From Candidatus Omnitrophota bacterium (lineage in GTDB: Bacteria; Omnitrophota; Gorgyraeia; 2-01-FULL-45-10; JAHFGN01), in the NCBI GenBank assembly GCA_023247415.1, contig JAHFGN010000001.1, positions 10,062-74,061 of the forward strand: DNA of 64,000 nt, written 5' to 3'. Under the pieces are notes generated by a model. That model had not been told where the DNA came from, did no database searches, and saw nothing but the letters and a program-made list of their open reading frames with translations. Made by a program: the position numbers and the translations under genes. Every line of letters starts with the position of its first letter. The first letter of the stretch is position 1. Below, piece by piece: positions 10,862 through 35,200 of this stretch.

Positions 10862-10863
10862 AC

Positions 10864-12360: not shown

Positions 12361-13443
12361 ATGGGTAAGCGATTAGAAAAAATCAGGGAGCTCGCGAAGA
12401 AAGACAGTATATACATACTGCTCCTTGCGTTCATAATAGTTTTCAACGTCCTCGCCGCGGTTTCGAGCATGCCGGCGGATAAGGCGAAGGCAAGAAAAGA
12501 CTCGCAGGCGCTTTTGGCGAAGCGCGAGGCGATCGATAAGACGGATGAGCTCATGCTGCGCCGTGAAGAAGTTGAAAAGGCGTTCGCGAAGAAGCCGCTT
12601 CTTTCTTTGGCGCTGAATCTAACAAGCCTGGCGTTCCTTCTCATTGTTGCTCTGGGATTTTTGTTAGACGGCGCGCTTCTTGCTTTTAGATTTAAAGGAA
12701 GGACATTCGACATAAGCACGTATAGGCACGGCCGCGTTGGATGGTCTATCGCGGACGTGGCGAGGGTGGCCATATTATTCTTATTCTTCGCGTATCTTAT
12801 GGTTATAATAGATGCCTTCCTTTATCGGATATTGCCCGTCTTAAAGAATGACAATTTCAGGATGATGTTCAACTCCTCGATATCAGATTGTATCGCCGCG
12901 ATGTTTGTGGTATACTTCGCTGTTTACAAAAATCGCGCGGGCTTGATTGAGCTTGGACTCACCTTAAAGAATCTCTTCCGGAATATATTTTATGGGATCG
13001 CCGGTTATATCGCGGCTGTGCCCGTTTTTTTAATCGCGGCATTTTTGGTCCTTATCGCGGTTAAGCTCGTTGGGTACGCGCCGCGGAAACAGCCGGTTGT
13101 CGAACTATTCATGAGGGAGGGGAATCCCGCGTTCCTGGTATTTTCGAGCCTGTTCACGTCGATATTCGGGCCCGTGATAGAGGAGTTGTTTTTCAGGGGA
13201 TTTATGTATAACGCGGTGAAGAAGCTGACGGGCATATTCTGGGCAACGATGCTGACAGCGGCGGTTTTCGCCGCGCTCCATACGAATGTAGTCGGATTCC
13301 TTCCGATAATGGTCCTCGGCGTATTATTGGCGCATATGTATGAGAAGACCGGCAGCTTAGTTTCATCCATAACGATTCACATCATCCATAACCTCGCGAT
13401 GGTATATGTCGTATTTTTGGTAAAAGGGATAAAGGCCATATGA
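12361..13443 (+). CDS. CPBP-family (CAAX/Abi) intramembrane metalloprotease
   Basis: It is a multi-TM hydrophobic protein with 'EELFFRGFM', 'FAALH' and 'HIIHN' (CPBP motifs 1-3). The annotated start lies at the edge of a palindromic repeat and the true start may be downstream. Confidence 0.65.
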   Translation: MGKRLEKIRELAKKDSIYILLLAFIIVFNVLAAVSSMPADKAKARKDSQALLAKREAIDKTDELMLRREEVEKAFAKKPLLSLALNLTSLAFLLIVALGFLLDGALLAFRFKGRTFDISTYRHGRVGWSIADVARVAILFLFFAYLMVIIDAFLYRILPVLKNDNFRMMFNSSISDCIAAMFVVYFAVYKNRAGLIELGLTLKNLFRNIFYGIAGYIAAVPVFLIAAFLVLIAVKLVGYAPRKQPVVELFMREGNPAFLVFSSLFTSIFGPVIEELFFRGFMYNAVKKLTGIFWATMLTAAVFAALHTNVVGFLPIMVLGVLLAHMYEKTGSLVSSITIHIIHNLAMVYVVFLVKGIKAI

Positions 13444-18947: not shown

Positions 18948-18953
18948 TTGAAG

Positions 18954-21900
18954 ATGCATATGAAAAAAATTATAATTATTTTAGCTATAGCAGCATTTTT
19001 ATCTTCCAATATAGCGTTGGCTGAGCCGGCCAATACCCTCGCCCCGTCACTGCGATTCCAGAGTTCATTTCCACATGAGCGGCCACAGACGCAAGGCGAC
19101 TCTGTACTCTCCGACGTAAAATTATTCACCGTCCTATTTGCAATAGGTAAACAACTCCTGATCGATAACAGGCCTATCCGCGCCATTCCGCGCGCAATAA
19201 GAAATAAATTCGTATTCGATCCGTCATTTCTCGCGGGCATAGAACCTGATGGTATACGGCGGGATGGCAGTACGATAATCGTACCTTATTCGAAGGGCAC
19301 GAAGGATTATGAAATAAGGATAAGGCCGAAAGAGCTGTTGAAGGGATCGAGCGCCGGATGGAAGATCTCCGACAGATTCGGGGTGCAGGCTGTGGAAATC
19401 AAGAAAGCAGCCGCTGATTCCAGTTTCAGGATGGCGGCCGGGGGCGGCGGCCCATCTGCGCACCAGGATGCTCGAACAGCGATGCTGGCTGATGGCGGCT
19501 GGTCGCCGCTTCTTGAGGAGCTTCGATCCAGCCTGCAGCAGGCAGCGCAAAATCAGGACCAATCCAGGCTTTTCATCTTCCTGGACGCCTGCAATGAGGC
19601 CCAGGCGAGCGACCGAAAAAATCCGATCGAAAACCGATATCCGATACTGCATGCGGTAACCCTGCTTTCGAAAGAGGAGAAGCGTCAACTGATTGATATA
19701 TTACTTCAGCAGAACAATCAGGAGAAGCGTTACCAGTCAGCCGTAACAGATTCTATCCTTTTGATGCTGGCCAAAAACATCCCTCAGGAATGGCTGAACA
19801 GATGGGCCGGTAACATGGAAGGCCGCACCATCTGGGATGTATCCAGCGAGGCCTGGAATGCCGGCGGCGGTCTGGGCCGTGTCATACAGTATCGCGTCCT
19901 CGCCATGCTGAACCTCCTAAAAGGGCACAATACGCGCATTCGCACCGTCGAGCCGCACTATCAGGAAAATAGAGACGGCACAAAACTGTCCTACGAATCC
20001 CTCCCCCTGCCAATCGAGAATAAACAGAAGATAGACGAATTTGAAGTAAAGTTTGGGATGAAGAAGGCAAAGGCGATCTGTTATCGCGGCATAGTCCATT
20101 ATAAAGCGGAGGATAACCAGACATATGAAGTCGAGGCGTATCGGATTGAAGACGAAGGCGGGTACTATACAAAGTGCATGTATAAATACGGCTCGGGAGG
20201 CCATAATGACCCTATAGTCACATGGGAAGACTTCTCCGCGTTCTTCTCCACGGCATCCTTAGAACTGATGAAGCGCGTCGAAGAAAAAGAGATGAGAGAA
20301 AGACAGGGCAGAAAGCCCCCTGTCATCCACTTCAACGATTCCCAGTTAGCGCCCGCAGTGGAATATTACCTGCAGGATTATTACAGGGAACCCTCCTTGA
20401 GAGACGCCCTGGTTGTATTTCAAACGCACACTATACCAAACCGGCAGGACTATATTTGGGAAAGGGGAGTGCAGGCTGTGAAAGATATGGGCATACACGG
20501 CGAGGCCTATGCTAAAATTTGGCTGCACTTCGGGCATCACAGGCCAAAACAGGGAGGCGGTTGGGAGGCCGTTGTAGATTGGGCTTCAGCAGGCATACGC
20601 GACGCCGGTTTAGCGTTAGGCGTAAGCAGACAGCAGTTGAGTGTTATCGGCCCGTTTGATGAATGGAAAGTGGAAGAACAGGGGAAGCCGTATGTTGATC
20701 TTATTGCGGCGACAAACGGAGATCTGCGCGAATTGACAGCGATAGAGTTCAGGCGGATTATGCGGCAGGTATGCGGCAATGATGTCGATGTGGAGGAGCC
20801 GACCGTAGAACAGGTTTTAAAGACCAAACAAGCGGCAAAAAAGGCATTGGGGAGCGAGCTGAAGAGGTTGAAAAATAACACGATGTTAACATTAAACCCT
20901 GACCAGTATGTTGTATCTTATTCAGGAAGGCTTGTCCCTGAGAAGGTCAGCAGAACGCGGGCATTTACAAATGAAAATATCGAAGCGCTCGTAAAAATGG
21001 GTGTTCAAGTAATCATATACGGCAATGTTCAAAATAGCGATCCGAGCCGCGCGATAGAGCGAGAGCTGTTAGGCCTGGAAAGAGATCTTAAGGAAAAGGG
21101 TTATCTCGGGAAATTTATCTTCATCCCAAGTTTCACTCCGGGGGATCAGAGGCTGCTTCTGGCCGCAACAGATATTCAGGCGCAGGTTTCGGATCCAAAT
21201 ACCGAAGCCGCTGGCGCCACAGAATCTGATATTGCCGCCTGCGCCGGGTTAGAGCTCGCGCCGCACTGGCGTGAGGGGATATTGCAGGCCCAGGGCATTC
21301 CAATAAATCTGGATGAGACAGGCGAAGGCAGCATACTCATACCTCGGGAAGACAAGCCGGAATCATACCTGGAAATTTTGACCGGGGTTTTAAGCAAGAA
21401 ACCGCCGGAGCTCGCGGAATACCAGGCGACATCGGTTCGCTTAAGCCGCGTCTTAGAGGCTGTGCTCACATCGGCCGAGAATCTCAGGCAATACGACGCA
21501 GCCTTATCCAGGAGGGATATGAGCAGAAAAACGGCCAGTGGAGTGAGCGGGGTGATGAAAGAAATCCACAGGATCAACCTCGATATAGGCGTCTATCATG
21601 AAGCAGGCAGGACCTTCTGGCACGTGATACCGATAGAGCTTGTCCCGTATCCTATAAGGAATAAGTTTATAGATATTGTTGCCAGGATGAACCGCGATTA
21701 TCCGGACGCGCCTGAAAAGATAAAGATAGTGACTGAACACCAGGACCTGTTTGACATAGCAGGGAGGCTCTCGGCAGATAATGACGTAGACGTTGCCCTA
21801 TCCCGGCGCGGCGATATAGACAAACTGCCGGATGGAGTAAAGGCGCTCGTCTTTGAAGGCGAATTGGGAAACTTCAGACAGCTGGAGGGGGTGCTCGCCT

Positions 21901-22124
21901 GTTTGAGAGCGTTGTCCATAAAGAATAGCGCGGAAAGATCAGATAAGTTGTCAAGGCTTTATAAACTTTTGACCGGCGAAGATCCGAAAAAAATACCGGA
22001 TATATCCGACCCGAAAACATTTGCCCGAAACTTTATATTCATCCTGCCGCCCATTGCAGTCGAGAATTACGAATACCTGCGAAAGTTAAACTCCAACCTT
22101 CTCCACCTCATCGAATCCGCATAG
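18954..22124 (+). CDS. Giant-family protein (about 1056 aa): signal peptide, TLAP N-domain, GT-B glucan phosphorylase/glycogen-synthase-like domain, family C-module
   Basis: 'MKKIIIILAIAAFLSSNIALAEPANTLAPS' (leader). 'VSSEAWNAGGGLGRV' and 'YSGRLVPEKV' are GT5/GT35-like. The C-terminus 'FIFILPPIAVENYEYLRK' matches the family C-module. A sigma70 promoter and shared leader lie upstream. Confidence 0.75.
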   Translation: MHMKKIIIILAIAAFLSSNIALAEPANTLAPSLRFQSSFPHERPQTQGDSVLSDVKLFTVLFAIGKQLLIDNRPIRAIPRAIRNKFVFDPSFLAGIEPDGIRRDGSTIIVPYSKGTKDYEIRIRPKELLKGSSAGWKISDRFGVQAVEIKKAAADSSFRMAAGGGGPSAHQDARTAMLADGGWSPLLEELRSSLQQAAQNQDQSRLFIFLDACNEAQASDRKNPIENRYPILHAVTLLSKEEKRQLIDILLQQNNQEKRYQSAVTDSILLMLAKNIPQEWLNRWAGNMEGRTIWDVSSEAWNAGGGLGRVIQYRVLAMLNLLKGHNTRIRTVEPHYQENRDGTKLSYESLPLPIENKQKIDEFEVKFGMKKAKAICYRGIVHYKAEDNQTYEVEAYRIEDEGGYYTKCMYKYGSGGHNDPIVTWEDFSAFFSTASLELMKRVEEKEMRERQGRKPPVIHFNDSQLAPAVEYYLQDYYREPSLRDALVVFQTHTIPNRQDYIWERGVQAVKDMGIHGEAYAKIWLHFGHHRPKQGGGWEAVVDWASAGIRDAGLALGVSRQQLSVIGPFDEWKVEEQGKPYVDLIAATNGDLRELTAIEFRRIMRQVCGNDVDVEEPTVEQVLKTKQAAKKALGSELKRLKNNTMLTLNPDQYVVSYSGRLVPEKVSRTRAFTNENIEALVKMGVQVIIYGNVQNSDPSRAIERELLGLERDLKEKGYLGKFIFIPSFTPGDQRLLLAATDIQAQVSDPNTEAAGATESDIAACAGLELAPHWREGILQAQGIPINLDETGEGSILIPREDKPESYLEILTGVLSKKPPELAEYQATSVRLSRVLEAVLTSAENLRQYDAALSRRDMSRKTASGVSGVMKEIHRINLDIGVYHEAGRTFWHVIPIELVPYPIRNKFIDIVARMNRDYPDAPEKIKIVTEHQDLFDIAGRLSADNDVDVALSRRGDIDKLPDGVKALVFEGELGNFRQLEGVLACLRALSIKNSAERSDKLSRLYKLLTGEDPKKIPDISDPKTFARNFIFILPPIAVENYEYLRKLNSNLLHLIESA

Positions 22125-22358: not shown

Positions 22359-25300
22359 ATGAGTAAGCGGGCAATAGCCAAAATCGTATCTCTGCTGTTA
22401 ATTCCTTCTTTTTTCGCCTCTGATATCGCCTTTGCGGCGAATATCAGGGACGCGCTTGCGCCATATTCCGGTCTAGAGCTTGCAAATGGTAAGGATGAGG
22501 AAAATCCTGTCCTTGCCGCAAGGCAAAATAAGGTACGGGCCCTGGTGAAAGCGAAGATGGCAGAGTCTCTGGCAAGGGCCATGTATGGAAGGTTGAAGAA
22601 ACATAACGATATATCTGCCGAAGTTATAAGACAGACAGTTGCCGCTGATGTAAAGAACTGGAGCGTTATGCGCCAAGCGGCGAGCGGCAGCAGCATAACC
22701 GTTAAGAGATTTAGGGGCGCAGATAAGGAAATAGATAAAGGCAATACCTTTGTCATCGCAACCGGCGGCGGAGACTGCGCAGGGCTCAATCCAGCGATAG
22801 CGGCATTCATTCGCGAGATGCAGAAAGAGGGAAAAAACGTCCTGGGTGTTAAGGAGGGCTACAAAGGAGTCGCATCGCCGGAATTCTTGAAGAAGTACGC
22901 CGTCTTATTGGAAAATGAGGATGCCGGCCATATCCAAGGCCTGGCCTCTACGGTCCTCGCATCCTCCAGAGAGAATCCTTACGAGATAGATGCCGCCGGC
23001 GAATTAAAAGATCCGAATAGGATCGAAAACTGCCGGAAAAACCTCGATGGGTTCGCTGGATTCGCGATAATAGGCGGTGAGGACAATATGGGTGTCGCAG
23101 GGCAATTCTCTACGGATGAGAAATTGCCCAAGCAGGTAGCGGCCATTCCAAAGAGCATCGACAATGACGTGGATACGCAGATGCTCGGTTTCCATACAGC
23201 TTGGACTGAAGCGAGGGATATATTCTACGCGCCGCGCCTTGAGGGCGCGATGGCGCAAGCCGAGAAAGAATTTGATGAGATTATAGAAAGATTTGTAAGC
23301 ACAGCGGTATCCGCCGATGCCCACAAAAAATATAATGTGACGCTTGCGCAGGGCGACCAGGCCAAAAAAGCCGGCGCCTGGCTGGCCAACTTCATACACA
23401 GCGCGAATCCTAACGCCGACCCCATATTTCAGAGACTGCCTGCGCCGCTTAAGATTCACCTTCTGCATTTAAGGGATTCCATCGTGGTCCTGACCCCAGA
23501 CGAACCCCGCAGCCTAAAGGATATAGTGGCAACCTCATATAATATTTATAAGAAGAAACGGACGGCGAACGTCTTATTAGTCGATGGATTTGTGTTTGGC
23601 AAGGATGAAGATGGCTATACGAAAGAGGCTATAGCTAAGGACCATCTCCTAAAGGCGTTGTACGAAGGACAAGAACCGCCGTATGCCCCTGATTTTATTG
23701 AACACAAGGCGCATCTTGTGAGAAGGGGCATGATATACCACCTCGCAAAACTGCCTCATGCTAATGTGAAGGGCGGTCAAGATGTGCGGTTTTCAATGGT
23801 TGGACGGATGGATGTCAGTAGATCCAAGTATTCTGTGACTGAGATCATGGGCCGTAAGGCAGGATGGCTTGCCCTATATGCGGGATCGAAATATCCAAAG
23901 GACTTTGAGGAGCTGCCGATTGAACTGCAAAAGGCCGTCGAAGAGAAGAGGGCCCATGTGCTTATATTGACGCCGGAAAAGCCCGCGACTCTAAAAGAAA
24001 TTGTTGATGAGGCTGGCCGGATATGGAAGGATACAGGCCGATGCGACATATTAGTGGCAGAAGGGCTCTCTTTTTCTAAAGACGATGAGTATCTCAAAAA
24101 ATTACTTGAAAATAACAAAGTCCTGAATGCCTATTATGATGAGCAGGTGGTCCACCCTGCCTATGACAGCCACGGCCACCCGAAGTTGGAAGGCATAGGC
24201 TGGTTTGTGAGGTGGGCTATATCGCATTTTCTTCATGAAGAGCTGGCGTATATCCCTGAATGGAAGATGAGTTATGAATTAAGGGGGCTTGCGCCGGATG
24301 AGTATGACACGCGTTTAGGCGAGGCATTTGGAAGAAAGGCCGCAGAGCTTCTCTTATCCGGCTCAAGCGGCAAAGCTGTAACACTGCCTGATGGACTGGA
24401 ACCAATATACGAAAACATACAGGTTCGGCCGATAGCGGATGCAGTGCGGCAGAAGAACATAACAACACAGGTTGAACGCGGACTCCTCACCGAGGAAGAG
24501 TTGAGGCGGCAGGGCGTTTTTCAAAATTTACGCCGGGCAGCCAGCGGCAGCGCCAACGTAGAACGTTTCAAACGTGAAAGAGAGATTATTAAAAATATAT
24601 TGAAGGCGCAAAATATCAGCTTGCCAGCCGGCATAAGCGCAGGCGAGGTCCTCTCCATGCTAGAATTCGCTGACGCGAAGGGCCACGTCGCGATCGTCGC
24701 GCTCGACCAGGGAACGCTTATACAATGGGTGGATCCGAAGGCCGATAAAAAAGATCCGTCACAGGAGTCTATAGATAAAGGCACTGTGGTCAGGTTGACG
24801 ATCATGTACTATTTGGCCAATGGGATGCGAGCTAAAAACAGACGCGTCGGTTTTCTGCTGGATAAGCCCGCTTTGCAGGCAATCTCTAACGAAGGATCTG
24901 AAGGGGCTCGCGCCGCTAAACTGATCGCCAGAGGCACTCTGCCTCCGGATTTCATGGATGTTATAAAGGATATGCCGCTTGTGGCGCAGATAGAAGAAGC
25001 AAGAGGAGAGCGCGGAGTGGCAAAAGGCGTTTACTACACTGCCAAAAAGCGGGATGGCAACTTTAGCGTAGAAGAGGCGGTCAAGCTTGGCAGTCGCCTG
25101 ATAAAATCGAATGTCTTCTTCTATTGCGGCGGCGAACTGACAGAGGAAGAAAAGGAGTTTAATAAAAAACAGTGGGAGTTTATAGGAGAAGTCGCGAAGG
25201 AATGCCGGGAATTTGGCATAGGATATGTCAGTGAGCTCTTATATCTGGTGCCGCCGGAGATGTTAACGAGGCATAATACAGACGAGAAGTCATACAGGGC

Positions 25301-28300
25301 TACGCCGGAATTTATGAATGCCCACAAAGCGGCTACAATTATAGCGGCTGAAAGGATGCTCAAGATACCAGGCCTTACGCTTGCCAAATCAGCCCACCCA
25401 TATCCCGGAGAGGCCGGTTGGAAAAGTGTGAGCCCTGCTGAAAGGAAAGAAGCCCTCAAGCAGGTCGCCAATGTTGCTGGCAATAGATGGCTCATCTTAA
25501 GCGCGGATGAGCCTTGGGAGACATTCCGTCTTAAAGTAGAAGAAGCGGCTATATATGGTCAGATGGCAGGCATACTTGTCGGCCGTTCTCCCATTAAGAA
25601 CATCACACAAAAGGTTACAATAGACGGCAAGAATATAGATATGCTTAAGCCGGATGACGCAGTCAAGGATATTCTACAAACCGAAGGCGTGGAGAAACTA
25701 TTGGAGCTTCTCGGCTATATCGATAACGCGCCGGCGAACGTATGGAGAGGCCTCGGCTTCGGCGATAATTTCCATCCGCAAGCGATAAAAGATCAACTCG
25801 ACTATGCCCGCTATTCAGGAAGCGGTTTCACGTATGTCTATACGCCGGAGGACTTAATCGGAGATCCTGATGTTGTGAAAGGGCCTGAACAGGGATATAG
25901 CTGGGCAGGATACGGCATCTCAGCCTTTTTTGGGCTGGCGAAAAGGTTAATAGCGGAGATATGGTACCACTCTGTGCAGAAAGACGGACTTTCCAAGGTT
26001 CCTGGCGCAACACACGACAAGCTTCGTGAAGATATCGAAGGCGAGAAATCCGTATTCGCCAAGATTATGGGAAAAGACGAAACCCAGCCGCAGGTGGTTC
26101 ATATAGGCTTTAATGAGAAGATAGGGCCGGGCGGCGAACAGAAGCAACTATTTGTAGATCTGTGCGTAAGAGAGCGCAGATTGGTGAAAAGGCTAAAGAG
26201 AGAGTTGGAGAAATATATACATACCGAAGCCGAATTCGTTCGGTATCAAAAGGCATACGCGGCGTGGGTCAGCAGGCAGAGCGCTATCGGAGTCAAGTGG
26301 ACAAACCCCGGACTGCCAGAGCTTCCTGAGTTTATGGCGGGATTCGACATGCCAATATTCGAGGCGATACAAAATGTCAGGGCAGAGATAGTGCGCTATT
26401 TTAATGAGATCGAATTAAAGCCCGGACAGTTTATCCGTTCCCCGGTTGGATTTATCCATTCCATAGTTGGCTCTTATCAGGGGCATCCCTTGAGCGGCAA
26501 AAAGGCAAAGAATGAGGCGTGGTATATCTTCTCAATCGGCAAAGACGCCGAAGGACATGACAGGCTGCTGTATTTCGAGCCGCAGCAAACATCGAATACA
26601 ACCTATAGTCCGCTCGATTTTCCTACTCCTATAGTCTGGAAGAATGGAGGGGCGGAGATGAGAAAAGATATAGGCGCGGGGATAGATAAGGATATAGATG
26701 AATTGCTGCAAGACGGAGATAGCACGCCGGCGAATGATGAAGACGCGGTCAAAGTAATCGCCGAGAGGGCATTCTACTATAGGCCGGCAAACCCGGATGA
26801 GTTCGTAGTAAATAGCTTCGAAAATGTCACGAGCGGCGGGTTATACGCGTATCCGAAAAACGCGCGGGCAGAGTCTTTGATAGAAGGGAAAAACGCGTAT
26901 CCGAATTGGCCGGAAGACCTATTTACGCTTCACAGAATTATCTTAGTAGGCGACAGCAAGAAAAAAGAGTATGCCTTAATAACAGTCAGGCCGCCGCCAG
27001 AAGCGTATAGGTTCGACGAATTCTTCGTCATAAAAGGCAAGGTGAAGGCCAGGATAGGCGGGCAATGGTATCCGCAAGTTCTCGCTCCAGGGGCTTCTAT
27101 CTTAGTGACTGATCCGCGCAGCCAAATCGAGATACGGGCCGAAGGCGAGGCCGAGGTCCTAAGGCTGTATCATACAAAGCAAGGGCCATCACCGCGTTTG
27201 GCAAAAGCAGGCGAGGCTGTGGGGACTTCGAAAGCAGCGGAGTGGGTGAAACTTATTAAAGATCCAAATTCTTCTGAAGGCATCCGTCGTAAAGCAGCCG
27301 ATGATTTGGGCCTAATCGAATCTGTCCCGGAAGAGGCTGTCACAAGCCTTATTGAAATGTTAGACAGCGAAGACAAAGGAGTTCTAAAATATGTGGTTAT
27401 GGCATTAGGAAACATCAGGGTAAAGCGCGTTGTCCAAGGGCTTGTAGATATGCTTTCTCAAGAGGATTTTGACATGGAGGTGCGAATAGAACTTATTATC
27501 GCGCTGGGAAAAATCGGCGAACGTATGAGTGATGATTCGCAAATAAGAGCGGCCCTGGAAAATATTCTGAAGAATTTAAGCCAGATAGACCTTAACCATG
27601 CCGCCCGGTACACTCTGACTAATATGGACGCCGCTAAAAAGATGGCCGAACTCCTTAAAGATCGTACCAGCGCAAATGGAACTGATCTTCAACAGGAGAC
27701 GGCTGAAGAAGACGTAGAGACTAAAGTTGCCGGATGGAACAAAATTGATGCAGACTCCTTGCTGGGGACTCTCGCCGCCATCAGGGTAAGAAATGGGCAA
27801 TTGCGAAAGGGCCCTATCCTCATAGCCTATGACACCGGATTAGAGGAATTCCCCACCGGCCATGTAGCTCAGGCAGCGGATGCCAAGATAAATGAATATC
27901 TGGATGGAGGGCTCGTCAGTGTTCGCGGCACAGGGGAGAAGCTGCTTGAGGCCATTAAAGAGGTTGTCGCGGCTAAAGGTTTGAATCCAAAAGATGTGGT
28001 AGTCATAGCCGGAGACAATACCGCGGAGGCAGCGCGTAAATTTGGGACTGTCATCCATGTCAAAAATACAGATGGCCAGTTCCTGCCCATAATAGAATTC
28101 TACAACCTCGCGTTGAAGATACTATACGGCCTCGGCGAAGATGAGATCCTGGAATCCCTCAAGCGTATAGGCGGGGCGGAGTCATTCACAACAGAAGATG
28201 TGCGAAAGCTGTTTAGCGCGGGAATCATCAGGATACTGCCGAAGACGTTCCCGATAAGACATGCGGATGCTGTCGAGGCGTACAGAGCTACTCGCCGCGC

Positions 28301-28316
28301 GTTAGAATCGTTGTAA
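22359..28316 (+). CDS. Giant-family protein (1985 aa): signal peptide, TLAP N-domain, phosphofructokinase-like domain, DeoC/LacD/DhnA-type class I aldolase-like domain, HEAT-like repeats, family C-module
   Basis: 'ATGGGDCAGLNPAIAAF', 'IIGGEDNMG' and 'EIMGRKAGWLALYAG' are PFK GGD/MGR motifs. 'VAIVALDQG' is LacD/DhnA-like. The C-terminus is 'IIRILPKTFPIRHADAVEAYRATRRALESL'. An AAGGAG RBS sits 8 nt upstream. Confidence 0.8.
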   Translation: MSKRAIAKIVSLLLIPSFFASDIAFAANIRDALAPYSGLELANGKDEENPVLAARQNKVRALVKAKMAESLARAMYGRLKKHNDISAEVIRQTVAADVKNWSVMRQAASGSSITVKRFRGADKEIDKGNTFVIATGGGDCAGLNPAIAAFIREMQKEGKNVLGVKEGYKGVASPEFLKKYAVLLENEDAGHIQGLASTVLASSRENPYEIDAAGELKDPNRIENCRKNLDGFAGFAIIGGEDNMGVAGQFSTDEKLPKQVAAIPKSIDNDVDTQMLGFHTAWTEARDIFYAPRLEGAMAQAEKEFDEIIERFVSTAVSADAHKKYNVTLAQGDQAKKAGAWLANFIHSANPNADPIFQRLPAPLKIHLLHLRDSIVVLTPDEPRSLKDIVATSYNIYKKKRTANVLLVDGFVFGKDEDGYTKEAIAKDHLLKALYEGQEPPYAPDFIEHKAHLVRRGMIYHLAKLPHANVKGGQDVRFSMVGRMDVSRSKYSVTEIMGRKAGWLALYAGSKYPKDFEELPIELQKAVEEKRAHVLILTPEKPATLKEIVDEAGRIWKDTGRCDILVAEGLSFSKDDEYLKKLLENNKVLNAYYDEQVVHPAYDSHGHPKLEGIGWFVRWAISHFLHEELAYIPEWKMSYELRGLAPDEYDTRLGEAFGRKAAELLLSGSSGKAVTLPDGLEPIYENIQVRPIADAVRQKNITTQVERGLLTEEELRRQGVFQNLRRAASGSANVERFKREREIIKNILKAQNISLPAGISAGEVLSMLEFADAKGHVAIVALDQGTLIQWVDPKADKKDPSQESIDKGTVVRLTIMYYLANGMRAKNRRVGFLLDKPALQAISNEGSEGARAAKLIARGTLPPDFMDVIKDMPLVAQIEEARGERGVAKGVYYTAKKRDGNFSVEEAVKLGSRLIKSNVFFYCGGELTEEEKEFNKKQWEFIGEVAKECREFGIGYVSELLYLVPPEMLTRHNTDEKSYRATPEFMNAHKAATIIAAERMLKIPGLTLAKSAHPYPGEAGWKSVSPAERKEALKQVANVAGNRWLILSADEPWETFRLKVEEAAIYGQMAGILVGRSPIKNITQKVTIDGKNIDMLKPDDAVKDILQTEGVEKLLELLGYIDNAPANVWRGLGFGDNFHPQAIKDQLDYARYSGSGFTYVYTPEDLIGDPDVVKGPEQGYSWAGYGISAFFGLAKRLIAEIWYHSVQKDGLSKVPGATHDKLREDIEGEKSVFAKIMGKDETQPQVVHIGFNEKIGPGGEQKQLFVDLCVRERRLVKRLKRELEKYIHTEAEFVRYQKAYAAWVSRQSAIGVKWTNPGLPELPEFMAGFDMPIFEAIQNVRAEIVRYFNEIELKPGQFIRSPVGFIHSIVGSYQGHPLSGKKAKNEAWYIFSIGKDAEGHDRLLYFEPQQTSNTTYSPLDFPTPIVWKNGGAEMRKDIGAGIDKDIDELLQDGDSTPANDEDAVKVIAERAFYYRPANPDEFVVNSFENVTSGGLYAYPKNARAESLIEGKNAYPNWPEDLFTLHRIILVGDSKKKEYALITVRPPPEAYRFDEFFVIKGKVKARIGGQWYPQVLAPGASILVTDPRSQIEIRAEGEAEVLRLYHTKQGPSPRLAKAGEAVGTSKAAEWVKLIKDPNSSEGIRRKAADDLGLIESVPEEAVTSLIEMLDSEDKGVLKYVVMALGNIRVKRVVQGLVDMLSQEDFDMEVRIELIIALGKIGERMSDDSQIRAALENILKNLSQIDLNHAARYTLTNMDAAKKMAELLKDRTSANGTDLQQETAEEDVETKVAGWNKIDADSLLGTLAAIRVRNGQLRKGPILIAYDTGLEEFPTGHVAQAADAKINEYLDGGLVSVRGTGEKLLEAIKEVVAAKGLNPKDVVVIAGDNTAEAARKFGTVIHVKNTDGQFLPIIEFYNLALKILYGLGEDEILESLKRIGGAESFTTEDVRKLFSAGIIRILPKTFPIRHADAVEAYRATRRALESL

Positions 28317-28328
28317 AAATGCCTAAAA

Positions 28329-31300
28329 ATGTCGAGAAATTTTAACAAATTTTGTGCTGCAGGGTGCCAACTTGTGGGACGTCCCCTTTTGGTCCTCGTA
28401 TTTCTCCTCAATGATCTGGGATTTGCCAGCGGCCACGATGCGCTGGCGCCTCACTATATCTCCGGGCTCCGCGAAGACGACGATAATGGCGCCGCGGTTC
28501 TTGACGCCCGCGCCAGCAGGGTCAAACAGGAGATGAGGGCGGCCGCATCGGGCGCGCTTGCCGAAAAGATACGCGCCAAATTACATGAGAAAAACATACC
28601 CGTAACCAGCGAAGAACTCGAGGAGATAGTCAGCGACAACGTCCGATCCGGCGGCCTGCGCCAGGCAGGGAGCGGTGAGTATACGCCGTCGCCGCAGGAA
28701 CTCGGGCTCATGGACAGCCTCGGCTTTGAGTTGGCTGATAAACAGGGCAGGGTCCGGTATAAGCGCGATTATAAACCGCCGGAGCTGGGTGTCGATCTCT
28801 GGTATATGACGCATGGCGCAACGGACGGAAATAAAGCGGCACTGCTTCAAGGGAGCCGTTCAGACGGAGAGCAAAGGTTTTATCTGAATGAGGAGGGGCA
28901 TAAACAGGCGAAAGAGGGCGCGGAGAAACTGTGGAATATTTTAGGCGTTCGCCTTATGACTGGCGAGAAGATCGTATTTTTGACAAGTCCGATAAGCCGC
29001 GCCCGCCAGACAGCAGATCATTTCATAAAGTTTGTCGAGATCAAAAGCGAGGGTAAGTTAAATATTGAATTAGTCCCTCTGGAAATACTTAAAGAGGTTG
29101 ACCATGGATTCTGGGATGGCAAGAAGAGAGAAGAGTTGCCGGAAGATGAGAAAATCCTGGCAGGGCAGAATTATGCAAGAAATGTCTTTGTAAAATCTCA
29201 AATTCTTCCGGGAGAAAACTTCCTCGAATTCATAAAACGTGTCCGCACCGCCGTCGAATTCATCAACCGCGAGTATAAAGGTAAGACGGTCATTATATTC
29301 GGACACGGTTTCTATTCAGCCGCAATCAAGATTGTCCTCAAGACCCAAGAGGTGGACCAAATAATCGCTGAAAAAGGATATATCGACTGGTCAAAACCTC
29401 TCCAACCCCATACTCACGAACGCTGCCAGCCGATCCATTTCGCTGCGACAGCAGGCGAGCGCAAGGCGACGAGCGGGGATGAGATTGAGCAATTTAAGCC
29501 AGTGGAATTGAGCCCGCAAAATATAGAGCGAGAAACGCCGCGGCAATTGGATGGCCTGCCAGCCAATACAGCGATGCTTCTTCGGGTCATACCGAAAACG
29601 CCCCAGGAAGCCCAGGAATGTAAAGATCTTGTCGAGCTCAATATCGGGCTAAGGCCCCTTATGACTTATGAAGGACTGTTAAAAATATACACTCAAGAGG
29701 CTCTCGCGCATAGGATCTCGAAGGGCGAAGGATCTCTGACAATATTGCTTCCCTTTAGACTTAAGGTCCCGGGCCTCAAAGGTCTCTCAGAGTTGAAGGC
29801 GGTATTAGGCATTGAAAAAACATGGGGAATGCTTCCAGATGAATTTCAATCGGACTTCAATCTTTTAGGAACAAGGAGAGATACAGTCGAAGTGCGAAGA
29901 AGATTGTTGACAGAGGCATTTAAACTACTTTCTGCCGGGGAGTTGCGCCTCGAAAATATAGCGGGATTTCCTATCGGCCTTCCAGAGAAAGCGGATAAAG
30001 AGTACTTCGCGAACGAGATGAAACTGGACCCGAATAGACTCTTCTCAGAGACTGAAGCGAATGAGATTTCAAGTCGGCTCGCAGCCGCAAAGGCCGAGCA
30101 GGAAGCTGAGAAATTACAAGAAAAACTGCAAAAAGAGCGAGATAGGGATGCCGCCCTGGCCGCTGCCAGGCTCGATCCAATTATTCAAAAGGCGAAGGCG
30201 GATCTAAACAGCATGCTCGATGAACTGGCCTCCTCTTCAGTCCCTCCGGCGCCGGATGAAGTGGAGGCCTTAAGAGGCGACATCGCTAAATTATCGGATG
30301 CCGAGCCGCTAGATAGAGGCAATTTTCAGCAGGCGGGCGCGAGCCTGAAAGGGCGCCCAGATGGTTTGCGTCGGAGGATCAAGAAGCTGGAAGAAAAATA
30401 TAGAGAAGAGCGAGAGATAACAGATTTGCTCTTGCGAATAATCTATTTAATAGACGCGAAAGATTGGCCAAAATTTTTGGCGCAGGATGTGCCGAACGCG
30501 TTCAGCTCTAATATTCTTGGGGAATATCCAAAGCTGAGCGATCGAACAGTCGAGCGCTTAAACCAGATAGTTCACTCTATCCATCAGGCGCTGCATTCTC
30601 AACACTTCGATGACCCAATAATTTATTCTACCTTAAGGACCATCCAGGCCATGATTGTGAACGCCTTAGCAGCCGCTGGAAGGATATCAGAGTCAGCGGC
30701 GCAAGTTTTCTGCGAAGACAACCTCTCAACTCAAGGCGATGTGTGGGTTCGCCAGAGAAATATTTGGTCAGAACGGCTTAAGCGAAGATTGGAAAGGGGT
30801 GGATTAGTCAAGGGCGGCCTTCCGCCTCCTCCTCCGCAGTCTATACTAAAGGCTATGGGGGCTAGAGGCAAGACGGGTGAGATAGCGTCCCGCTGCCTTG
30901 GGGTGTTTGACCTTCTCATTCTCTCAAGCAGGAGAGAGCAGTTCTCTGAGCCTGCGGCCCGGGATATCACTTTAGGGCCATTCACAGCTCTTTACTGCTC
31001 TATGCTCCGTATTGAAAAGGCTGACAATGGCGCGATTGCCGGTGTCTCCGACTATTTAAAATCGTTGTATCTACGCGTTGGCGAGGTGCCGGCAGATATA
31101 AAAAAGGGCGTCCTCTTAGGCAAGGCGGCCTATCTTGTTAATCTCGGGATGGTCGAGGTTTCGCTCGCCAGCATGGCGTCAGACCATTTCGGCGCTAAAG
31201 ACTTTGCGGCTGAATTTATGGATGTCGCCAGAGGGATATCCAAGTGGTTACCCAAAAAATACCCAGAATACAAGCCTTGGTATCCGCCGCTTCTGGCCGC

Positions 31301-32033
31301 GTATCTGAATGAGCCTGGCAGGCCCGCGCCTGAGGCGCAGGCTGGCGGCCAGACCGCGCCAACAACATCTGACCGAAAATCTACGAGCGGGATAAGGCAG
31401 GGCCTCGCCGCCGGTCCGGCAGTTCGCGCTGCAATGAGCGGAAGGGAAAAGAAAGAGGCGCGGGGGGCTAACATTCCCCAATCCCTAAGCGGCAAGATGG
31501 CTTTGCGCAAGACTCTCTTGACTTTGGTCTCTAAAGAATTGCAAAAAGGGCCTGTCGTGATAGCCACTGACACTGAACTTGTGCCAATTGAGATTGCCCA
31601 GATGGCTGAGAAGGTGACGAAGAGGTACTTAGGCGGCAGCGTGATGCATATAAGAGGCGCTGGTGAGAAGCTTCTTGAAGCTATCAGGGCCAAAGGCCTA
31701 AACCCGAAAGATGTTGTGATAATAGCCGGAGACAACACTGCGGGAGAGGCCCGAAAATTAGGGACTGTCATCCATGTCAAAAATCCGGAAGGAGAGTTCT
31801 TACCTATATTAATAGAGCTCTATGACCTCGCCCTGAAGATACTATATGGCCTGGGCGAGGAGAAGATATTGGAGTCTCTTAAGGGTATCAGCGCGGATAG
31901 ATGTGATGAGGCGGATGTGAAGAGGCTGCTCATTGAAGGCATAATCAGGATTCTGCCGAAGACAATTAAGATATCTGGCGCGGAGAAGCTAGAGGCGTAC
32001 AGCGCGACTCAAGCCGCCCTCCAATCGCTGTAA
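28329..32033 (+). CDS. Giant-family protein (about 1234 aa): TLAP N-domain, histidine-phosphatase (phosphoglycerate-mutase-like) domain, coiled coil, family C-module
   Basis: 'LWYMTHGATDGN' and 'VIIFGHGFYSAA' are branch-1 histidine-phosphatase motifs with a THG core. The C-module is about 70% identical to that of the preceding gene. The annotated 5' end is encoded by a REP element, so the true start is uncertain; an in-frame TTG lies before 'VLVFLLNDLGFASG'. Confidence 0.75.
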   Translation: MSRNFNKFCAAGCQLVGRPLLVLVFLLNDLGFASGHDALAPHYISGLREDDDNGAAVLDARASRVKQEMRAAASGALAEKIRAKLHEKNIPVTSEELEEIVSDNVRSGGLRQAGSGEYTPSPQELGLMDSLGFELADKQGRVRYKRDYKPPELGVDLWYMTHGATDGNKAALLQGSRSDGEQRFYLNEEGHKQAKEGAEKLWNILGVRLMTGEKIVFLTSPISRARQTADHFIKFVEIKSEGKLNIELVPLEILKEVDHGFWDGKKREELPEDEKILAGQNYARNVFVKSQILPGENFLEFIKRVRTAVEFINREYKGKTVIIFGHGFYSAAIKIVLKTQEVDQIIAEKGYIDWSKPLQPHTHERCQPIHFAATAGERKATSGDEIEQFKPVELSPQNIERETPRQLDGLPANTAMLLRVIPKTPQEAQECKDLVELNIGLRPLMTYEGLLKIYTQEALAHRISKGEGSLTILLPFRLKVPGLKGLSELKAVLGIEKTWGMLPDEFQSDFNLLGTRRDTVEVRRRLLTEAFKLLSAGELRLENIAGFPIGLPEKADKEYFANEMKLDPNRLFSETEANEISSRLAAAKAEQEAEKLQEKLQKERDRDAALAAARLDPIIQKAKADLNSMLDELASSSVPPAPDEVEALRGDIAKLSDAEPLDRGNFQQAGASLKGRPDGLRRRIKKLEEKYREEREITDLLLRIIYLIDAKDWPKFLAQDVPNAFSSNILGEYPKLSDRTVERLNQIVHSIHQALHSQHFDDPIIYSTLRTIQAMIVNALAAAGRISESAAQVFCEDNLSTQGDVWVRQRNIWSERLKRRLERGGLVKGGLPPPPPQSILKAMGARGKTGEIASRCLGVFDLLILSSRREQFSEPAARDITLGPFTALYCSMLRIEKADNGAIAGVSDYLKSLYLRVGEVPADIKKGVLLGKAAYLVNLGMVEVSLASMASDHFGAKDFAAEFMDVARGISKWLPKKYPEYKPWYPPLLAAYLNEPGRPAPEAQAGGQTAPTTSDRKSTSGIRQGLAAGPAVRAAMSGREKKEARGANIPQSLSGKMALRKTLLTLVSKELQKGPVVIATDTELVPIEIAQMAEKVTKRYLGGSVMHIRGAGEKLLEAIRAKGLNPKDVVIIAGDNTAGEARKLGTVIHVKNPEGEFLPILIELYDLALKILYGLGEEKILESLKGISADRCDEADVKRLLIEGIIRILPKTIKISGAEKLEAYSATQAALQSL
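28353..28390 (+). repeat. REP element copy (tgtgctgcagggtgccaacttgtgggacgtcccctttt)
   Basis: It is the same roughly 38-bp sequence as the two REPs flanking the RAYT gene. It contains the palindromes ctgcag and ggggacgtcccc. Confidence 0.75.
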
Positions 32034-32035
32034 AT

Positions 32036-32090
32036 TTTGTGCGGCAGGCACCCTGCCGCAGAGAGCAGGGTGCCTGCACACGGTTAAGAT
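32036..32090. repeat. Degenerate REP-like palindrome (possible REP pair/terminator)
   Basis: 'ttttgtgcggcaggcaccctgccgcagagagcagggtgcctgcacac' shares 'ttttgtgc.gcaggg.gcc' with the REP and folds as a long hairpin. Confidence 0.45.
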
Positions 32091-32113
32091 TGCAAAAATT
32101 TTGTTTTCGACCC

Positions 32114-32167
32114 TTGACAAGTGAAAGAATATCAGTATACTTATGTGGCTTTAAAATTAAAAAAATG
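32114..32167 (+). promoter_or_regulatory. Sigma70-type promoter (TTGACA-16-TATACT) plus conserved leader 'tATGTGGcTTtaaaaTTAAAAAAA' upstream of the 32216 giant gene
   Basis: -35 at 32114-32119 and -10 at 32136-32141. An AAGGAG RBS lies at about 32203-32208. Confidence 0.55.
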
Positions 32168-32215
32168 TTTACAAAGAATATGAGGAAGAAAAACAGCAAA
32201 CATAAGGAGAAGACC

Positions 32216-35200
32216 ATGGTCTCAGGCCGTAGATTATTTTTGAAGGTCATAGCATTAGCATTGGTTCCTACATTTATATCTTCCAGCATCACATTCGCCC
32301 AACCGATTCCGGATAACCGAAGCACGCTCGCTCCGGCATCGAGGACCGACGCCGTTGATGACAGCAACAGGGGTAGGGGGGATGTCCTCACCAATACCGT
32401 CGCGAAAAACTTCACTGATCAATGGTTTGAGGCATACGGCAGTAAGATTGCCAGAAAACTGTTCCTGGCATTGAGCCGGCCCGCAACGCCAGAAGTCGCC
32501 GAGGCTGTAGTCAAACACAATACTATAGGTATGGATGGCAAGACACAGCTTAGGTTCATCAACGCCGTAAAAGCGCGCATTGCGCCAACAACAACAGGCC
32601 TGCGCATGGCAGGGAGCGGAACCAGCCGCACTGCAACAAACGGCGAGACTGTCACGCCTCCGGGGAATATAAAACTGCTTGTTGCTCGAAATAAAGAGGC
32701 GATGGCGCGAGAGATGGCGGAGAGGATCGTGGTTAAAGTTCGTGAGGCAAACAGGGCGGGCCAACGGATGACGCTTGGTCTTGCAACAGGCGGCACGATG
32801 GAGCGCGTATATGAGCTCGTAGTTGAGATAACGAAAAACGAGAGACTCGACTGGTCTGGGGTCGTCACATTTAACCTCGATGAATATAAAGGTCTTTTGT
32901 CTACCCATAAACAGAGCTACAGGGCTTTCATGGATAAGCATCTATTCACCCCCCTCGTTCAATTTGGACTTAAGATTGAGGATACACATGTCTTTGACGG
33001 CACAGCGAGTGTTCCAGATGATGAGCTTCGTAAATTCCTTGGCATGATAAAACGACATGGCGGCGTAGACCTGCAGATCTTAGGCATCGGAAGCGACGGC
33101 CACTATGCATTCCACGAACCAGCAGTGGTAGTGGATGATGCCATGGCGAGCGCTATTTATAACGGTGAGCTCTCTCCAGAACAGACCGAAAAGGTTGGCG
33201 GATTCAACGAATTCATCATAACAGGTAAAGATCTTGCAGCGAAAAGCAATGCGATACAACGTGTAATACATGCCAAGTCAGTTTGGCTGACAGCGCTGGA
33301 GAGTAATGAAAGTATTCTCGCCAAAGTTAAAGAAGCGTGGACAAAGGAGAAAAGAGAGGTAAATGAAGCGGATATAAGAGGACAGCTGCGGCAGTTAGGC
33401 AAAAAACTGCTTCTTGGACAAACTCTTCATTTCTACATCGACGGATTGGATAAGGAAGCAAAGAAAAATCTTCTTTCTCACATAAGCTCGGACGAATTGT
33501 ACCGTATGTCATACGTGGGGAGAGTCGAATTGCATGATGCAAAAGAGTTCTTTGACAGCAAAGCAAAGGTCGTTGACCTTGCCCTCTCCACTATAATAGA
33601 CAATTCGCGGTACTTCCCGAGCCTGCTCGATGTGCCGACCCAGGCCTATACGCTGACAGGCGTTGTAAGAGAGGCAAAAGAGATATTGCTGGCCGCAAGC
33701 GGAGAAAACAAGGCCGAGGCAATAGCCGGCGCGCTCGGCAAGACCATATCACAGGAGGTCACATCGAGCATCCTGCAGACCCACCCAAATACGACCTTTA
33801 TCATCGCTGAAGACGCGCTCACCAAGGTGCCGTCCGAGGTAGTGACGAAAGCCGATAAAAATCGTGTCTTCGCCTCAGCCGCCCGCTCCGCGCTGAGCGG
33901 ATATACGCGAGAGGACGCGAAGCGAGAGGTGCCGGTAGCATTTGCCGAGCATCGCGCTTTTTGTATTGGGGAGCCGATAGTTGAGAATGAGTTGGGGATG
34001 TATATCCCGAGCTTTAATAAATGGACAGAATCTGATGTGAAGGCGTTTGAAGAGACGCTCAAAGATCTGCCCAATCTTGAAGGTATAGGTATAGACGGCG
34101 ATGGGAAGGCTGCTCTTACTATCAAGAAGGAGAAGTTTATATCCGACAGCCAGGTCCTGACCGGATTGATCAAATTTTTGTTTGACTGGGCCCAAAAGAG
34201 GGAAGAACGGGAAAAGAGCGAAGCGGTTTCGAATAACGAGGTGCTCGCGGCGTTTAAAGATCTGGTAAATTCGATCGCGCTTATAAGGACGAGCATCGGC
34301 TCGATGGCAAAGCCCGAGATAGAAGAAGATTCCGCCGCCAAACGATATGTCCTCGTCCTGGACGATACGCAGGCGCCTGCTACTGTGGACCAGCTCAAGA
34401 AAGAGGCCCGCCTGACAGCCATGTTCACAGGCATTGAGCCTCCTATACATTATGAATACGGCAGGGGTACTCCATGGGTAGGATTTACAGGATCGCATGC
34501 GGGCGCGGCGTCAATCTACACCAGCGTCGCGAGAACGAAGCAGTATGTTAAATTGATCGAGGAAGCGGTAAGGGACGGCCACAGCCAATATGCAGAATTG
34601 TTAAAGATGGCCTTTATCCAGTCGCTTAGCGGCAATATGGAAGCGAAAAACAAGATAGTTGAAACTATCATCGTCGCGGAACATGAAAATGATAATAAAA
34701 AAGCGCTTGAGAAGATAAAGGCGGAGGATAAGGACCGCTTCACCGAGACATTCGTATCCGTGGACCTGTCCAGGGCGCTTGGCCAACTCGCGCAGATACC
34801 GGAAGCGATCGCCAAGTCAGCCGAAAATTATCTCCTCACAGCGATTGACAAAGGCGAGATAAATGATTTTGTCGTAAAGAGATTTGGAGAGCTCCTGATA
34901 TTCGACGTGACGCATAACAATCCTATATACGACATCCACCTTCGGGCTCAAGAGATTATAGCCGCATCCATCAGAGAGGCGTTTGCTGAAGTGATAAGGC
35001 TTGGCTATTACAAGATTGAGCAAGAAAAGATAGATTTCACCAAGGCCAGCCTTCAGGAATTGGCGAAGGCGCTTGACTGGAATACGGATGAAATAAGATA
35101 TACGAAAGGACAGAGTAATAAACGAAAGTCCCAGCCCACCATGCGCCAGTTCATATTCGGCGCTGACGAGCGCGCGTTCAACAGTATCCTGTTCAACCTC

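Follow-up and report, generated by a model that had tools for sequence, protein, structure and literature searches.

Several glycolytic enzymes occur as natural fusions, i.e., the PGK-TIM (phosphoglycerate kinase and triose-phosphate isomerase) protein of Thermotoga, the TPI-GAPDH (triose-phosphate isomerase and glyceraldehyde-3-phosphate dehydrogenase) protein of stramenopiles, and the fructose 1,6-bisphosphate (FBP) aldolase/phosphatase, in each of which one polypeptide combines steps that follow one another in glycolysis or gluconeogenesis. The same is seen in the protein described here, encoded by the open reading frame (ORF) at 22359-28316 of a 64-kb stretch of DNA (contig JAHFGN010000001.1, hereafter the window) from a Candidatus Omnitrophota bacterium, which is predicted from its sequence and from structural models to join on one chain a phosphofructokinase (PFK), a class I aldolase of the Schiff-base type and a domain resembling sugar-phosphate isomerases. 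To our knowledge, no natural PFK-aldolase fusion has been characterised. A 2025 review of the PFK superfamily mentions as fusions only PFK-PFK tandems and a glyoxalase-like N-domain (PMC12203962).

Multi-enzyme giant proteins are already known in the Omnitrophota, and the PFK-aldolase-isomerase chain is a new variant among them. In two relevant preprints, West-Roberts et al. ('Archaeovorins', bioRxiv 10.1101/2023.11.21.568195) describe Omnitrophota giants with TIM, phosphoglucose isomerase (PGI), fructose-1,6-bisphosphatase (FBPase), phosphoglucomutase/phosphomannomutase (PGM/PMM) and FBP-aldolase domains, predicted to be extracellular, a localisation that is also queried, and Nielsen and Lui (bioRxiv 10.64898/2026.06.07.730766) describe a 'multi-enzyme metabolic cluster' class of proteins of at least 10 kaa (thousand amino acids) in which a sugar-metabolism module (starch synthase, PGM/PMM, ROK) is combined with HEAT scaffolding, with 94% signal-peptide or transmembrane content. 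The present locus shares with the published giants the phylum, sugar-metabolism Pfam families (starch synthase, ROK, HAD), HEAT repeats and signal peptides or transmembrane segments, whereas the surveys are restricted to proteins of 10,000 aa or more and the locus is a gene cluster encoding proteins of 0.9-3 kaa with defined leader and tail modules. Compared with the published catalogue, ORF 22359-28316 has the Omnitrophota origin, the multi-enzyme content and the leader, and its 1,985 aa are short of the lower bound of at least 10 kaa. The accessible text of this literature mentions no PFK domain in giants, no PFK-aldolase pair and no LacD-type aldolase identity, and neither a phosphomannose isomerase (PMI)-like domain nor a locus of mid-sized proteins with a common leader and tail.

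Architecture of the fused protein and its two predicted catalytic domains

ORF 22359-28316 is uninterrupted on the + strand, starts with ATG preceded at 8-14 nt by AAAGGAG, and encodes 1,985 aa. Exactly these boundaries had been given in a sequence-only reading of the window, which placed a PFK-like domain followed by an aldolase-like domain within 22700-25600. Both domain calls hold and the span is nearly right (the PFK starts at about 22734 and the aldolase barrel ends at about 25769), whereas the PMI-like bicupin, the HEAT repeats, the signal-like leader, the C-terminal module and an insertion inside the PFK had been overlooked. All of the strings on which it relied are found in the protein (TFVIATGGGDCAG, with GGGD at aa 136-139; GGEDNMG, aa 239-245; MGRKAG, aa 497-502; and KGHVAIVALDQG, with D783 and Q784), ALDQG corresponding to aa 781-785; 284 aa rather than about 250 aa separate MGR from ALDQG. 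The architecture is as follows, with the supporting analyses in brackets:

22359..22439, + strand: N-terminal leader, aa 1-27 (Kyte-Doolittle scan, shared with neighbours)
22440..22733, + strand: conserved helical N-terminal region, aa 28-125 (BLASTP, alignment, motif enrichment)
22734..23264, + strand: PFK first half, aa 126-302 (Pfam PF00365, alignment to 3PFK/1MTO)
23265..23789, + strand: insertion inside the PFK, aa 303-477 (BLASTP)
23790..24458, + strand: PFK second half, aa 478-700 (NCBIfam PRK14072, alignments to PDB PFKs and to relatives)
24528..24548, + strand: second junction motif R-R-A-A-S-G-S, aa 724-730, at the PFK/aldolase border
24558..25769, + strand: predicted class I aldolase of the LacD/YihT type (TIM barrel), aa 734-1137 (NCBIfam NF009498, 8TNF, AlphaFold2, Foldseek)
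25776..27194, + strand: type I phosphomannose-isomerase-like bicupin, aa 1140-1612 (homologues, AlphaFold2, Foldseek)
27216..27593, + strand: HEAT repeats, aa ~1620-1745 (Pfam HEAT_2, HEAT_PBS)
27747..28316, + strand: shared C-terminal module, aa 1797-1985, and stop codon (identity to neighbouring ORFs)

We consider it probable (about 0.75) that an Omnitrophota bacterium has in the product of this ORF a single-chain module for upper glycolysis. Mannose 6-phosphate, or some other hexose phosphate, would be converted by the bicupin to fructose 6-phosphate (F6P), the PFK domain would phosphorylate F6P, probably with pyrophosphate (PPi) and hence reversibly, and the aldolase, through a Schiff base on K1010, would split FBP into dihydroxyacetone phosphate and glyceraldehyde 3-phosphate; these trioses would be handed to a GAPDH-PGK-TIM protein encoded 13 kb downstream. 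Fusion would hold the enzymes close together at 1:1 stoichiometry, possibly permitting channelling, and the common leader and tail suggest that the giant sugar-metabolism proteins, as a whole set, are brought to the same place or built into one assembly, the cytoplasmic membrane being the probable site.

The PFK domain, previously recognised by its motifs, is matched by Pfam PF00365 well above the gathering cut-off (E 5.7e-31; 108.3 bits versus 30.9) in two stretches, aa 132-287 (profile positions 3-147) and roughly aa 489-683, the latter also being matched by the NCBIfam PPi-PFK model PRK14072; scores are far below the NCBIfam equivalog cut-offs, and the best PDB sequence match is 44XA/9CIR. 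The three motifs that had been named as the PFK GGD, GGDGS and MGR align to these in the Geobacillus structure 3PFK, where GGD, R72, D127, D129, MGR, E222 and R252 are all kept. In the first half these positions are found in GGGD (136-139), R204 (R72, in SSRENP), GGEDN (239-243) and PKSIDND (264-270), and in the second half in K490 (position 162), MGR (497-499), E568 in VAEG (E222) and R642 in YELRG (R252). The same PFK pattern is shown by the relative P0003 and by L005 and L006, two of the loci on public genome and metagenome contigs whose giant ORFs include the aldolase subfamily of the fused protein, with GGNDH (Asn at 103), PKS(I/V)DND, and conserved D104 and K124.

According to the review cited above, PPi-PFKs are marked by GGDD, PKTIDXD and a non-glycine residue at the position of BbuPFK Asn181, whereas K124 alone is not diagnostic of PPi use (PMC12203962). 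When the residues that distinguish ATP- from PPi-PFKs are compared, D104, V108 (non-Gly) and K124 of the fused protein (GGEDNMGV, PKSIDND) are of the PPi type. GGEDN, formerly taken for an altered motif, thus does contain a real change at 103 (Asp to Glu), but is not a mere degraded GGDGS, since D104, K124 and the non-glycine at 108 make up a PPi-PFK signature. These residues suggest that the PFK domain uses PPi and would hence be reversible. It has in common with PPi-PFKs (PFP, EC 2.7.1.90; Borrelia BbuPFK, Trichomonas 9DQM) the PF00365 fold, GGD, D127/D129, MGR, E222, R252 and the donor signature, and differs from them in the Glu at 103 (Asn in relatives), the 175-aa insertion, the 1,985-aa chain and the aldolase that follows. 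Much of the insertion (aa ~320-438) is a degenerate copy of PFK aa 487-596 (34% identity over 118 aa, E 2e-16), found by a targeted BLASTP comparison after having been missed by self-BLAST of the whole protein; in this copy MGR is replaced (…AQGDQAKKAGAWLANF…) and E222 has become Asp. L005, L006 and P0003 lack the insertion. A comparable extra copy is located after the PFK in P0003.

The aldolase region is supported, by profile matches and by a modelled fold, as a putative divergent class I TIM barrel of the LacD/YihT type. The NCBIfam LacD model NF009498 matches aa 901-1133 (profile positions 111-328, E 1.5e-9) and recognises both aldolase copies of the orthologous L006 protein (E 2.8e-20). 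A phmmer search of the region against the PDB returned a single structure, 8TNF, a sulfohexulose-1-phosphate aldolase ('DUF2090'), at E 3.7e-4, improving to 1.6e-9 with a four-sequence family profile; a larger family profile (A2) run against PDB sequences again reached 8TNF alone and no LacD structure, so that the LacD numbering relies on the fold search and on 8TNF/YihT. In the AlphaFold2 model of aa 734-1145 (predicted TM-score, i.e., template modelling score, 0.73), eight beta/alpha units can be recognised, with low-confidence stretches at model residues 53-72 and 148-167. When this model is compared with the PDB by Foldseek, the first 36 matches are without exception chains of 8TNF, of the tagatose-bisphosphate aldolase LacD or of the sulfofructose-phosphate aldolase YihT (E 7e-13 to 4e-9, target TM-score 0.60-0.73), including the LacD structures 3MYP, 3MHF and 5F2G (FBP bound). 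The DhnA-type enzyme of M. jannaschii ranks below all LacD/YihT matches, and a DhnA/archaeal-type enzyme was rejected as the closest aldolase. The LacD/DhnA-like 'ALDQG' and TIM-barrel region of the sequence-only reading therefore stands as a LacD/YihT-type barrel, but not as one closest to DhnA.

Five candidate active-site positions align between the fused protein and 8TNF:

D783: VALDQ, aligned to VALDQ of 8TNF
E959: VSELL, aligned to VLELL
K1010: TLAKS, aligned to the Lys of DLYKLE
S1048: LILSAD, aligned to LLSGG
G1075-R1076: LVGRS, aligned to LAGRT

D783, K916, E959, K1010, S1048 and R1076 lie on predicted strands 1, 4, 5, 6, 7 and 8, respectively. The Schiff-base lysine, which had been left to be located, is most plausibly K1010 on strand 6; E959 (strand 5) is a candidate acid/base, and S1048 (strand 7) together with G1075-R1076 (strand 8) a candidate phosphate site. 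In YihT, the Schiff base is formed by Lys193, and the phosphate is bound by Ser226/227 and Arg253 (PMC8006165), with spacings (33 and 60 residues) that the K1010-S1048-R1076 arrangement resembles (38 and 66). Six relatives (53-57% identity) retain K1010, which is Met in the distant P0066. Model and alignment thus both point to a TIM barrel equipped with its catalytic residues, including the lysine. The fused protein has in common with LacD (3MHF, 5F2G), YihT (7AG1) and 8TNF the TIM barrel, 'ALDQ' after strand 1, the strand-5 Glu, the strand-6 Lys and the Ser/Gly-Arg site, and differs from them in its low identity (only 15-18%), about 80 extra loop residues and 'ALDQG' for 'ALDQR'.

One or both enzyme-like domains might alternatively be dead scaffolds (pseudoenzymes) for sugar-phosphate binding or assembly, as could be read from the Glu at D103, the degenerate PFK duplicate without MGR and E222, the Met that replaces the Schiff-base Lys in P0066, and the scores under curated family cut-offs. 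The remaining catalytic residues of the two domains are, however, kept across relatives, and because this conservation is seen at only 45-57% identity it argues for purifying selection on the active sites. Moreover, Nielsen and Lui report pfkA in all 176 complete Omnitrophota genomes at relaxed thresholds only (PGI in 67 of 176; bioRxiv 10.64898/2026.06.07.730766), suggesting that divergent copies are working enzymes. We regard loss of activity as very unlikely.

The isomerase-like domain, recurrence of the fusion and its possible substrate

The bicupin (aa 1140-1612) is a conserved domain of about 450 aa. Within 1.84 billion proteins, 63 cluster representatives are related to it (E <= 0.001); many belong to proteins of 1-5 kaa, and some are stand-alone, of 440-490 aa (P0015, P0016, P0019). 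Its AlphaFold2 model, built from a 20-sequence alignment, has a mean predicted local distance difference test (pLDDT) score of 85.5 and a predicted TM-score of 0.87, and the top 12 PDB matches by Foldseek are type I PMIs. Pfam searches of four sub-segments at E <= 10 found no PMI family in the fused protein, with only Cupin_2 at E 0.098, and a PDB sequence search with aa 1150-1620 gave no match; the homologues show weak matches to Pfam MPI_cupin (E 5e-7 to 7e-3) and Cupin_2. The motifs YxWGG, AExW, FxKxL and PGxxxxxPxGxxH are recognisably PMI-like. Across the family, an invariant block PxGxxH-x6-QxHP-x6/7-KxE is found (invariant H1367, Q1374, H1376, K1384 and E1386), in which QxH and KxE follow PxGxxH, presumably the reverse of the canonical PMI order; this could mean that the metal site is rearranged or that the active site is another one. 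With the type I PMIs (Salmonella ManA 3H1Y, B. subtilis 1QWR, Candida 1PMI) the modelled domain shares the bicupin fold with a helical insert, and it differs from them in its low TM-scores, the lack of a Pfam PMI match and the QxHP...KxE block after PxGxxH.

The joining of PFK and aldolase is not restricted to this contig. With L005 and with L006 (45% identity), one uninterrupted alignment covers the C-terminal half of the PFK, the linker and the aldolase (aa 478-1137), and PFK-aldolase can therefore be regarded as a unit inherited in three lineages. The identical 1,985-aa protein is also present in an ENA assembly (on a 194,841-bp contig) and in a Logan assembly of a sequencing run, so that an artefact of a single assembler is unlikely; an assembly chimera was rejected on this ground and on that of the contiguous alignment to independent relatives. 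In all 8 relatives the aldolase copies are inside multi-domain chains or fragments, none being free-standing in the searches made. The domain orders of the principal relatives are:

L005, 1,807 aa, open at both ends: PFK – aldolase
L006 (91-9183), 3,030 aa: guanylate-kinase-like – aldolase – PFK – aldolase – PGI
L008/P0010, at least 4,959 aa: HAD – ROK kinase – aldolase – glucosamine-6-phosphate (GlcN6P)-deaminase-like – … – PGI
L009, 6,036 aa: GHMP-kinase-like – … – aldolase – … – PGI
P0006, 1,672-aa fragment with open N-terminus: weak P-loop matches – aldolase – PGI

The two aldolase copies of L006 are located at aa 727-1161 (after the guanylate-kinase-like domain) and aa 1833-2240 (after the PFK). 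The chain that carries the aldolase also carries a predicted F6P-forming isomerase, which is a SIS-type PGI in the relatives (downstream in L006 and P0006) and the PMI-like bicupin in the fused protein. This kinase-aldolase-isomerase pattern of domains supports hexose-phosphate breakdown as the probable role. L005, L006 and L007 come from contigs filed as 'Clostridia' or 'Actinomycetota' metagenome-assembled genomes, which looks like mis-binned Omnitrophota DNA. A word-indexed homologue search with the whole protein returned, besides itself, only two PFK-only matches, and with the aldolase segment no match, even the protein itself being missed. The second-best match to the fused protein is P0002, a eukaryotic MMETSP transcript product of 3,095 aa with six tandem PFK-family matches and an unrelated architecture.

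Instead of serving core glycolysis, kinase and aldolase might together act on another ketose phosphate (tagatose 6-phosphate to tagatose 1,6-bisphosphate, sedoheptulose 7-phosphate to sedoheptulose bisphosphate, or a sulfo- or amino-sugar derivative from prey cell walls) and form a salvage module. The closest structures are tagatose-bisphosphate, sulfofructose-phosphate and sulfohexulose-phosphate aldolases rather than canonical FBP aldolases, sedoheptulose 7-phosphate is phosphorylated by PPi-PFKs (PMC12203962), the aldolase domain also occurs after ROK, HAD and GlcN6P-deaminase-like domains, and the nearby ORF 162-9332 encodes GlcN6P isomerase, PIG-L deacetylase and ROK domains. Against this, FBP is plausible for a family in which a LacD structure has it bound (5F2G), the fusion partner is a PFK-family kinase whose F6P-site residues are largely kept, the window encodes both GAPDH-PGK-TIM and a class V FBPase, which need FBP and trioses, and no second FBP aldolase is seen within its 64 kb. 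A dedicated salvage module consequently appears unlikely to us.

A number of observations weigh against an upper-glycolysis module. PF01791, the family by which the sequence-only reading had expected the aldolase to be recognised, has no match in the fused protein even at E <= 10 (whole protein and four sub-segments), although 4 of 7 family members are positive (best E 3.6e-7). The NF009498 score is 37.3 bits, far below the cut-off of 184; the aldolase model is of moderate confidence (pLDDT 67, from an alignment of four sequences); and the aldolase is also found in chains that have no PFK, where it follows a ROK kinase or a P-loop domain. LacD-family enzymes act on several ketose phosphates, FBP being deduced solely from the fusion partner. 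In the PFK, three residues are changed relative to 3PFK (D103 to Glu, R162 to Lys, H249 to Tyr), and the two halves are split by the 175-aa insertion (aa 303-477), with its possible effect on the enzyme. The fold matches of the bicupin to PMIs have modest TM-scores (0.4-0.56), and its invariant residues do not map confidently to PMI metal ligands. Finally, a cleavable-looking signal peptide would imply PPi- or ATP-dependent enzymes outside the cytoplasm, a poor fit with a glycolytic role.

The divergence of these domains has a practical consequence. Standard annotation misses the aldolase (no Pfam match, and a score far under the NCBIfam cut-off) and detects the PFK weakly, and metabolic reconstructions of Omnitrophota can therefore show false gaps in upper glycolysis. 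The PFK-aldolase-isomerase-like fusion also offers a natural test case for substrate channelling and a template for engineered fusions.

Leader, junction motif and C-terminal module

The leader of the fused protein (aa 1-27) is its sole hydrophobic segment in a Kyte-Doolittle scan of all 1,985 aa and has the shape of a signal peptide, with a basic N-terminus, a hydrophobic stretch and AFA|A, followed by 'ALAP' at aa 32-35. Six giant ORFs of the window, including this one, have such a leader (K/R-rich, ...LLLIP(S/T)F..S(N/D)(I/L)(A/T)FA), followed within 2-15 residues by (T/A)LAP; the segments that begin with these leaders are:

18948-19060, + strand: leader of ORF 18948-22124
22359-22470, + strand: leader of the fused protein
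28329-28480, + strand: leader of ORF 28329-32033
32213-32340, + strand: leader of ORF 32039-38104
38181-38260, + strand: leader of ORF 38160-40931
41038-41180, + strand: leader of ORF 41038-47352

The real start of ORF 32039 is probably an internal Met near aa 59. In four of the five leader-sharing neighbours, as in the fused protein, the leader is followed by a helical region of about 60 aa and by a junction R-x-A-(A/G)-S-G, and BLASTP aligns the N-terminal region of the fused protein with those of ORFs 28329 and 41038 at 31-33% identity. The first junction motif of the fused protein, R-Q-A-A-S-G (aa 105-110, 22671-22688), ends the helical region, and the second lies at 24528-24545. Giants from other metagenomes (P0003, P0008 and P0040) have a similar leader.

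R-x-A-(A/G)-S-G occurs eight times in the seven giant ORFs of the cluster, compared with 0.07 expected (500 shuffles, maximum 2). In five ORFs it separates the leader region from the first enzyme domain, and it is also found at two internal domain borders, including that between PFK and aldolase. The motif may serve as a linker peculiar to this lineage or as a site of processing. This opens the possibility that the protein is a polyprotein precursor, exported or inserted into the membrane by its leader and cut at R-x-A-(A/G)-S-G into PFK, aldolase-isomerase and other pieces, which would achieve co-delivery rather than channelling. Such processing would agree with the enrichment of the motif and its position at domain borders, with an Rce1-like (CPBP) intramembrane protease gene at 12361-13443, a few kb upstream of the giant-protein cluster, and with the post-translational cleavage of Omnitrophota giants proposed by West-Roberts et al. 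(bioRxiv 10.1101/2023.11.21.568195). On the other hand, Pfam searches detect no protease domain in ORF 22359-28316, the motif is not enriched in relatives from other metagenomes (1 in 111 kaa versus 0.4 expected), and it could be a flexible linker inherited via paralogy. We consider a polyprotein unlikely. In the distant relative P0066, 'AGLEE' is repeated four times in place of the junction motif.

Of the parts of the protein that follow the bicupin, the HEAT repeats are clearly recognised (HEAT_2 at E 8e-16 and HEAT_PBS in a Pfam search by segment, alphaRep matches in the PDB). The C-terminal module of about 190 aa (aa 1797-1985) looks alpha/beta, ends in ...IIRILPK...EAY.A...AL.SL, has no Pfam match and gave nothing significant in a PDB profile search. 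The C-terminus of ORF 28329 matches it at 50% identity and that of ORF 41038 at 33%; ORFs 32039 and 38160 carry the module as well, and 9 further metagenomic giant proteins or fragments have it at their extreme C-terminus. In the window it is encoded at:

27747-28313, + strand: C-terminal module of the fused protein
31446-32030, + strand: C-terminal module of ORF 28329-32033
37541-38101, + strand: C-terminal module of ORF 32039-38104
40377-40928, + strand: C-terminal module of ORF 38160-40931
46720-47349, + strand: C-terminal module of ORF 41038-47352

The module may be an assembly or sorting domain. Extending the proposed single-chain upper-glycolysis module to the whole locus, the leader (with (T/A)LAP and R-x-A-A-S-G) and the ~190-aa tail could be address or assembly tags of a hitherto undescribed organised glycolytic assembly that leads from hexose phosphate to 3-phosphoglycerate and is delivered to the membrane or beyond, with the PFK-aldolase-isomerase chain as its upper-glycolysis unit; we put this forward tentatively and consider it doubtful. 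As to the leader itself, it may be a membrane anchor with cytoplasmic bulk, may serve true export, or may go together with cleavage at the junction motifs. These shared end modules sharpen the question of where the central metabolism of episymbiotic Omnitrophota takes place, and of how enzymes of several thousand residues are put in their place.

Genomic context and taxon

The topoisomerase I encoded in the window is 68-73% identical to proteins of which every named one belongs to Candidatus Omnitrophota/Omnitrophica, and by this protein comparison the taxon is Omnitrophota. GC skew is positive in every 2-kb bin of the 64 kb and the long ORFs lie almost without exception on the + strand, so that the window as a whole is co-oriented. 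The fused protein belongs to a set of seven co-oriented ORFs of 0.9-3 kaa, six of which have sugar-metabolism domains, with large parts devoid of any detectable domain. The GAPDH-PGK-TIM protein to which the two enzyme-like domains had originally been related in pathway terms is real and is the last of this set, which comprises, besides the fused protein:

162-9332, + strand: GlcN6P isomerase/6-phosphogluconolactonase (6PGL), PIG-L (deacetylase), ROK
18948-22124, + strand: starch synthase
28329-32033, + strand: histidine phosphatase (phosphoglycerate-mutase-type)
32039-38104, + strand: 6PGL/glucosamine-isomerase-like, class V FBPase
38160-40931, + strand: no Pfam match
41038-47352, + strand: GAPDH-C, PGK, TIM

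The ordinary neighbouring genes (ilvD, ilvC, leuA, aroC, topA, dprA and waaA) are of normal length. At 10076-12237, an AbiEii-type toxin gene is followed by a gene for a TatD DNase-radical SAM fusion of 457 aa.

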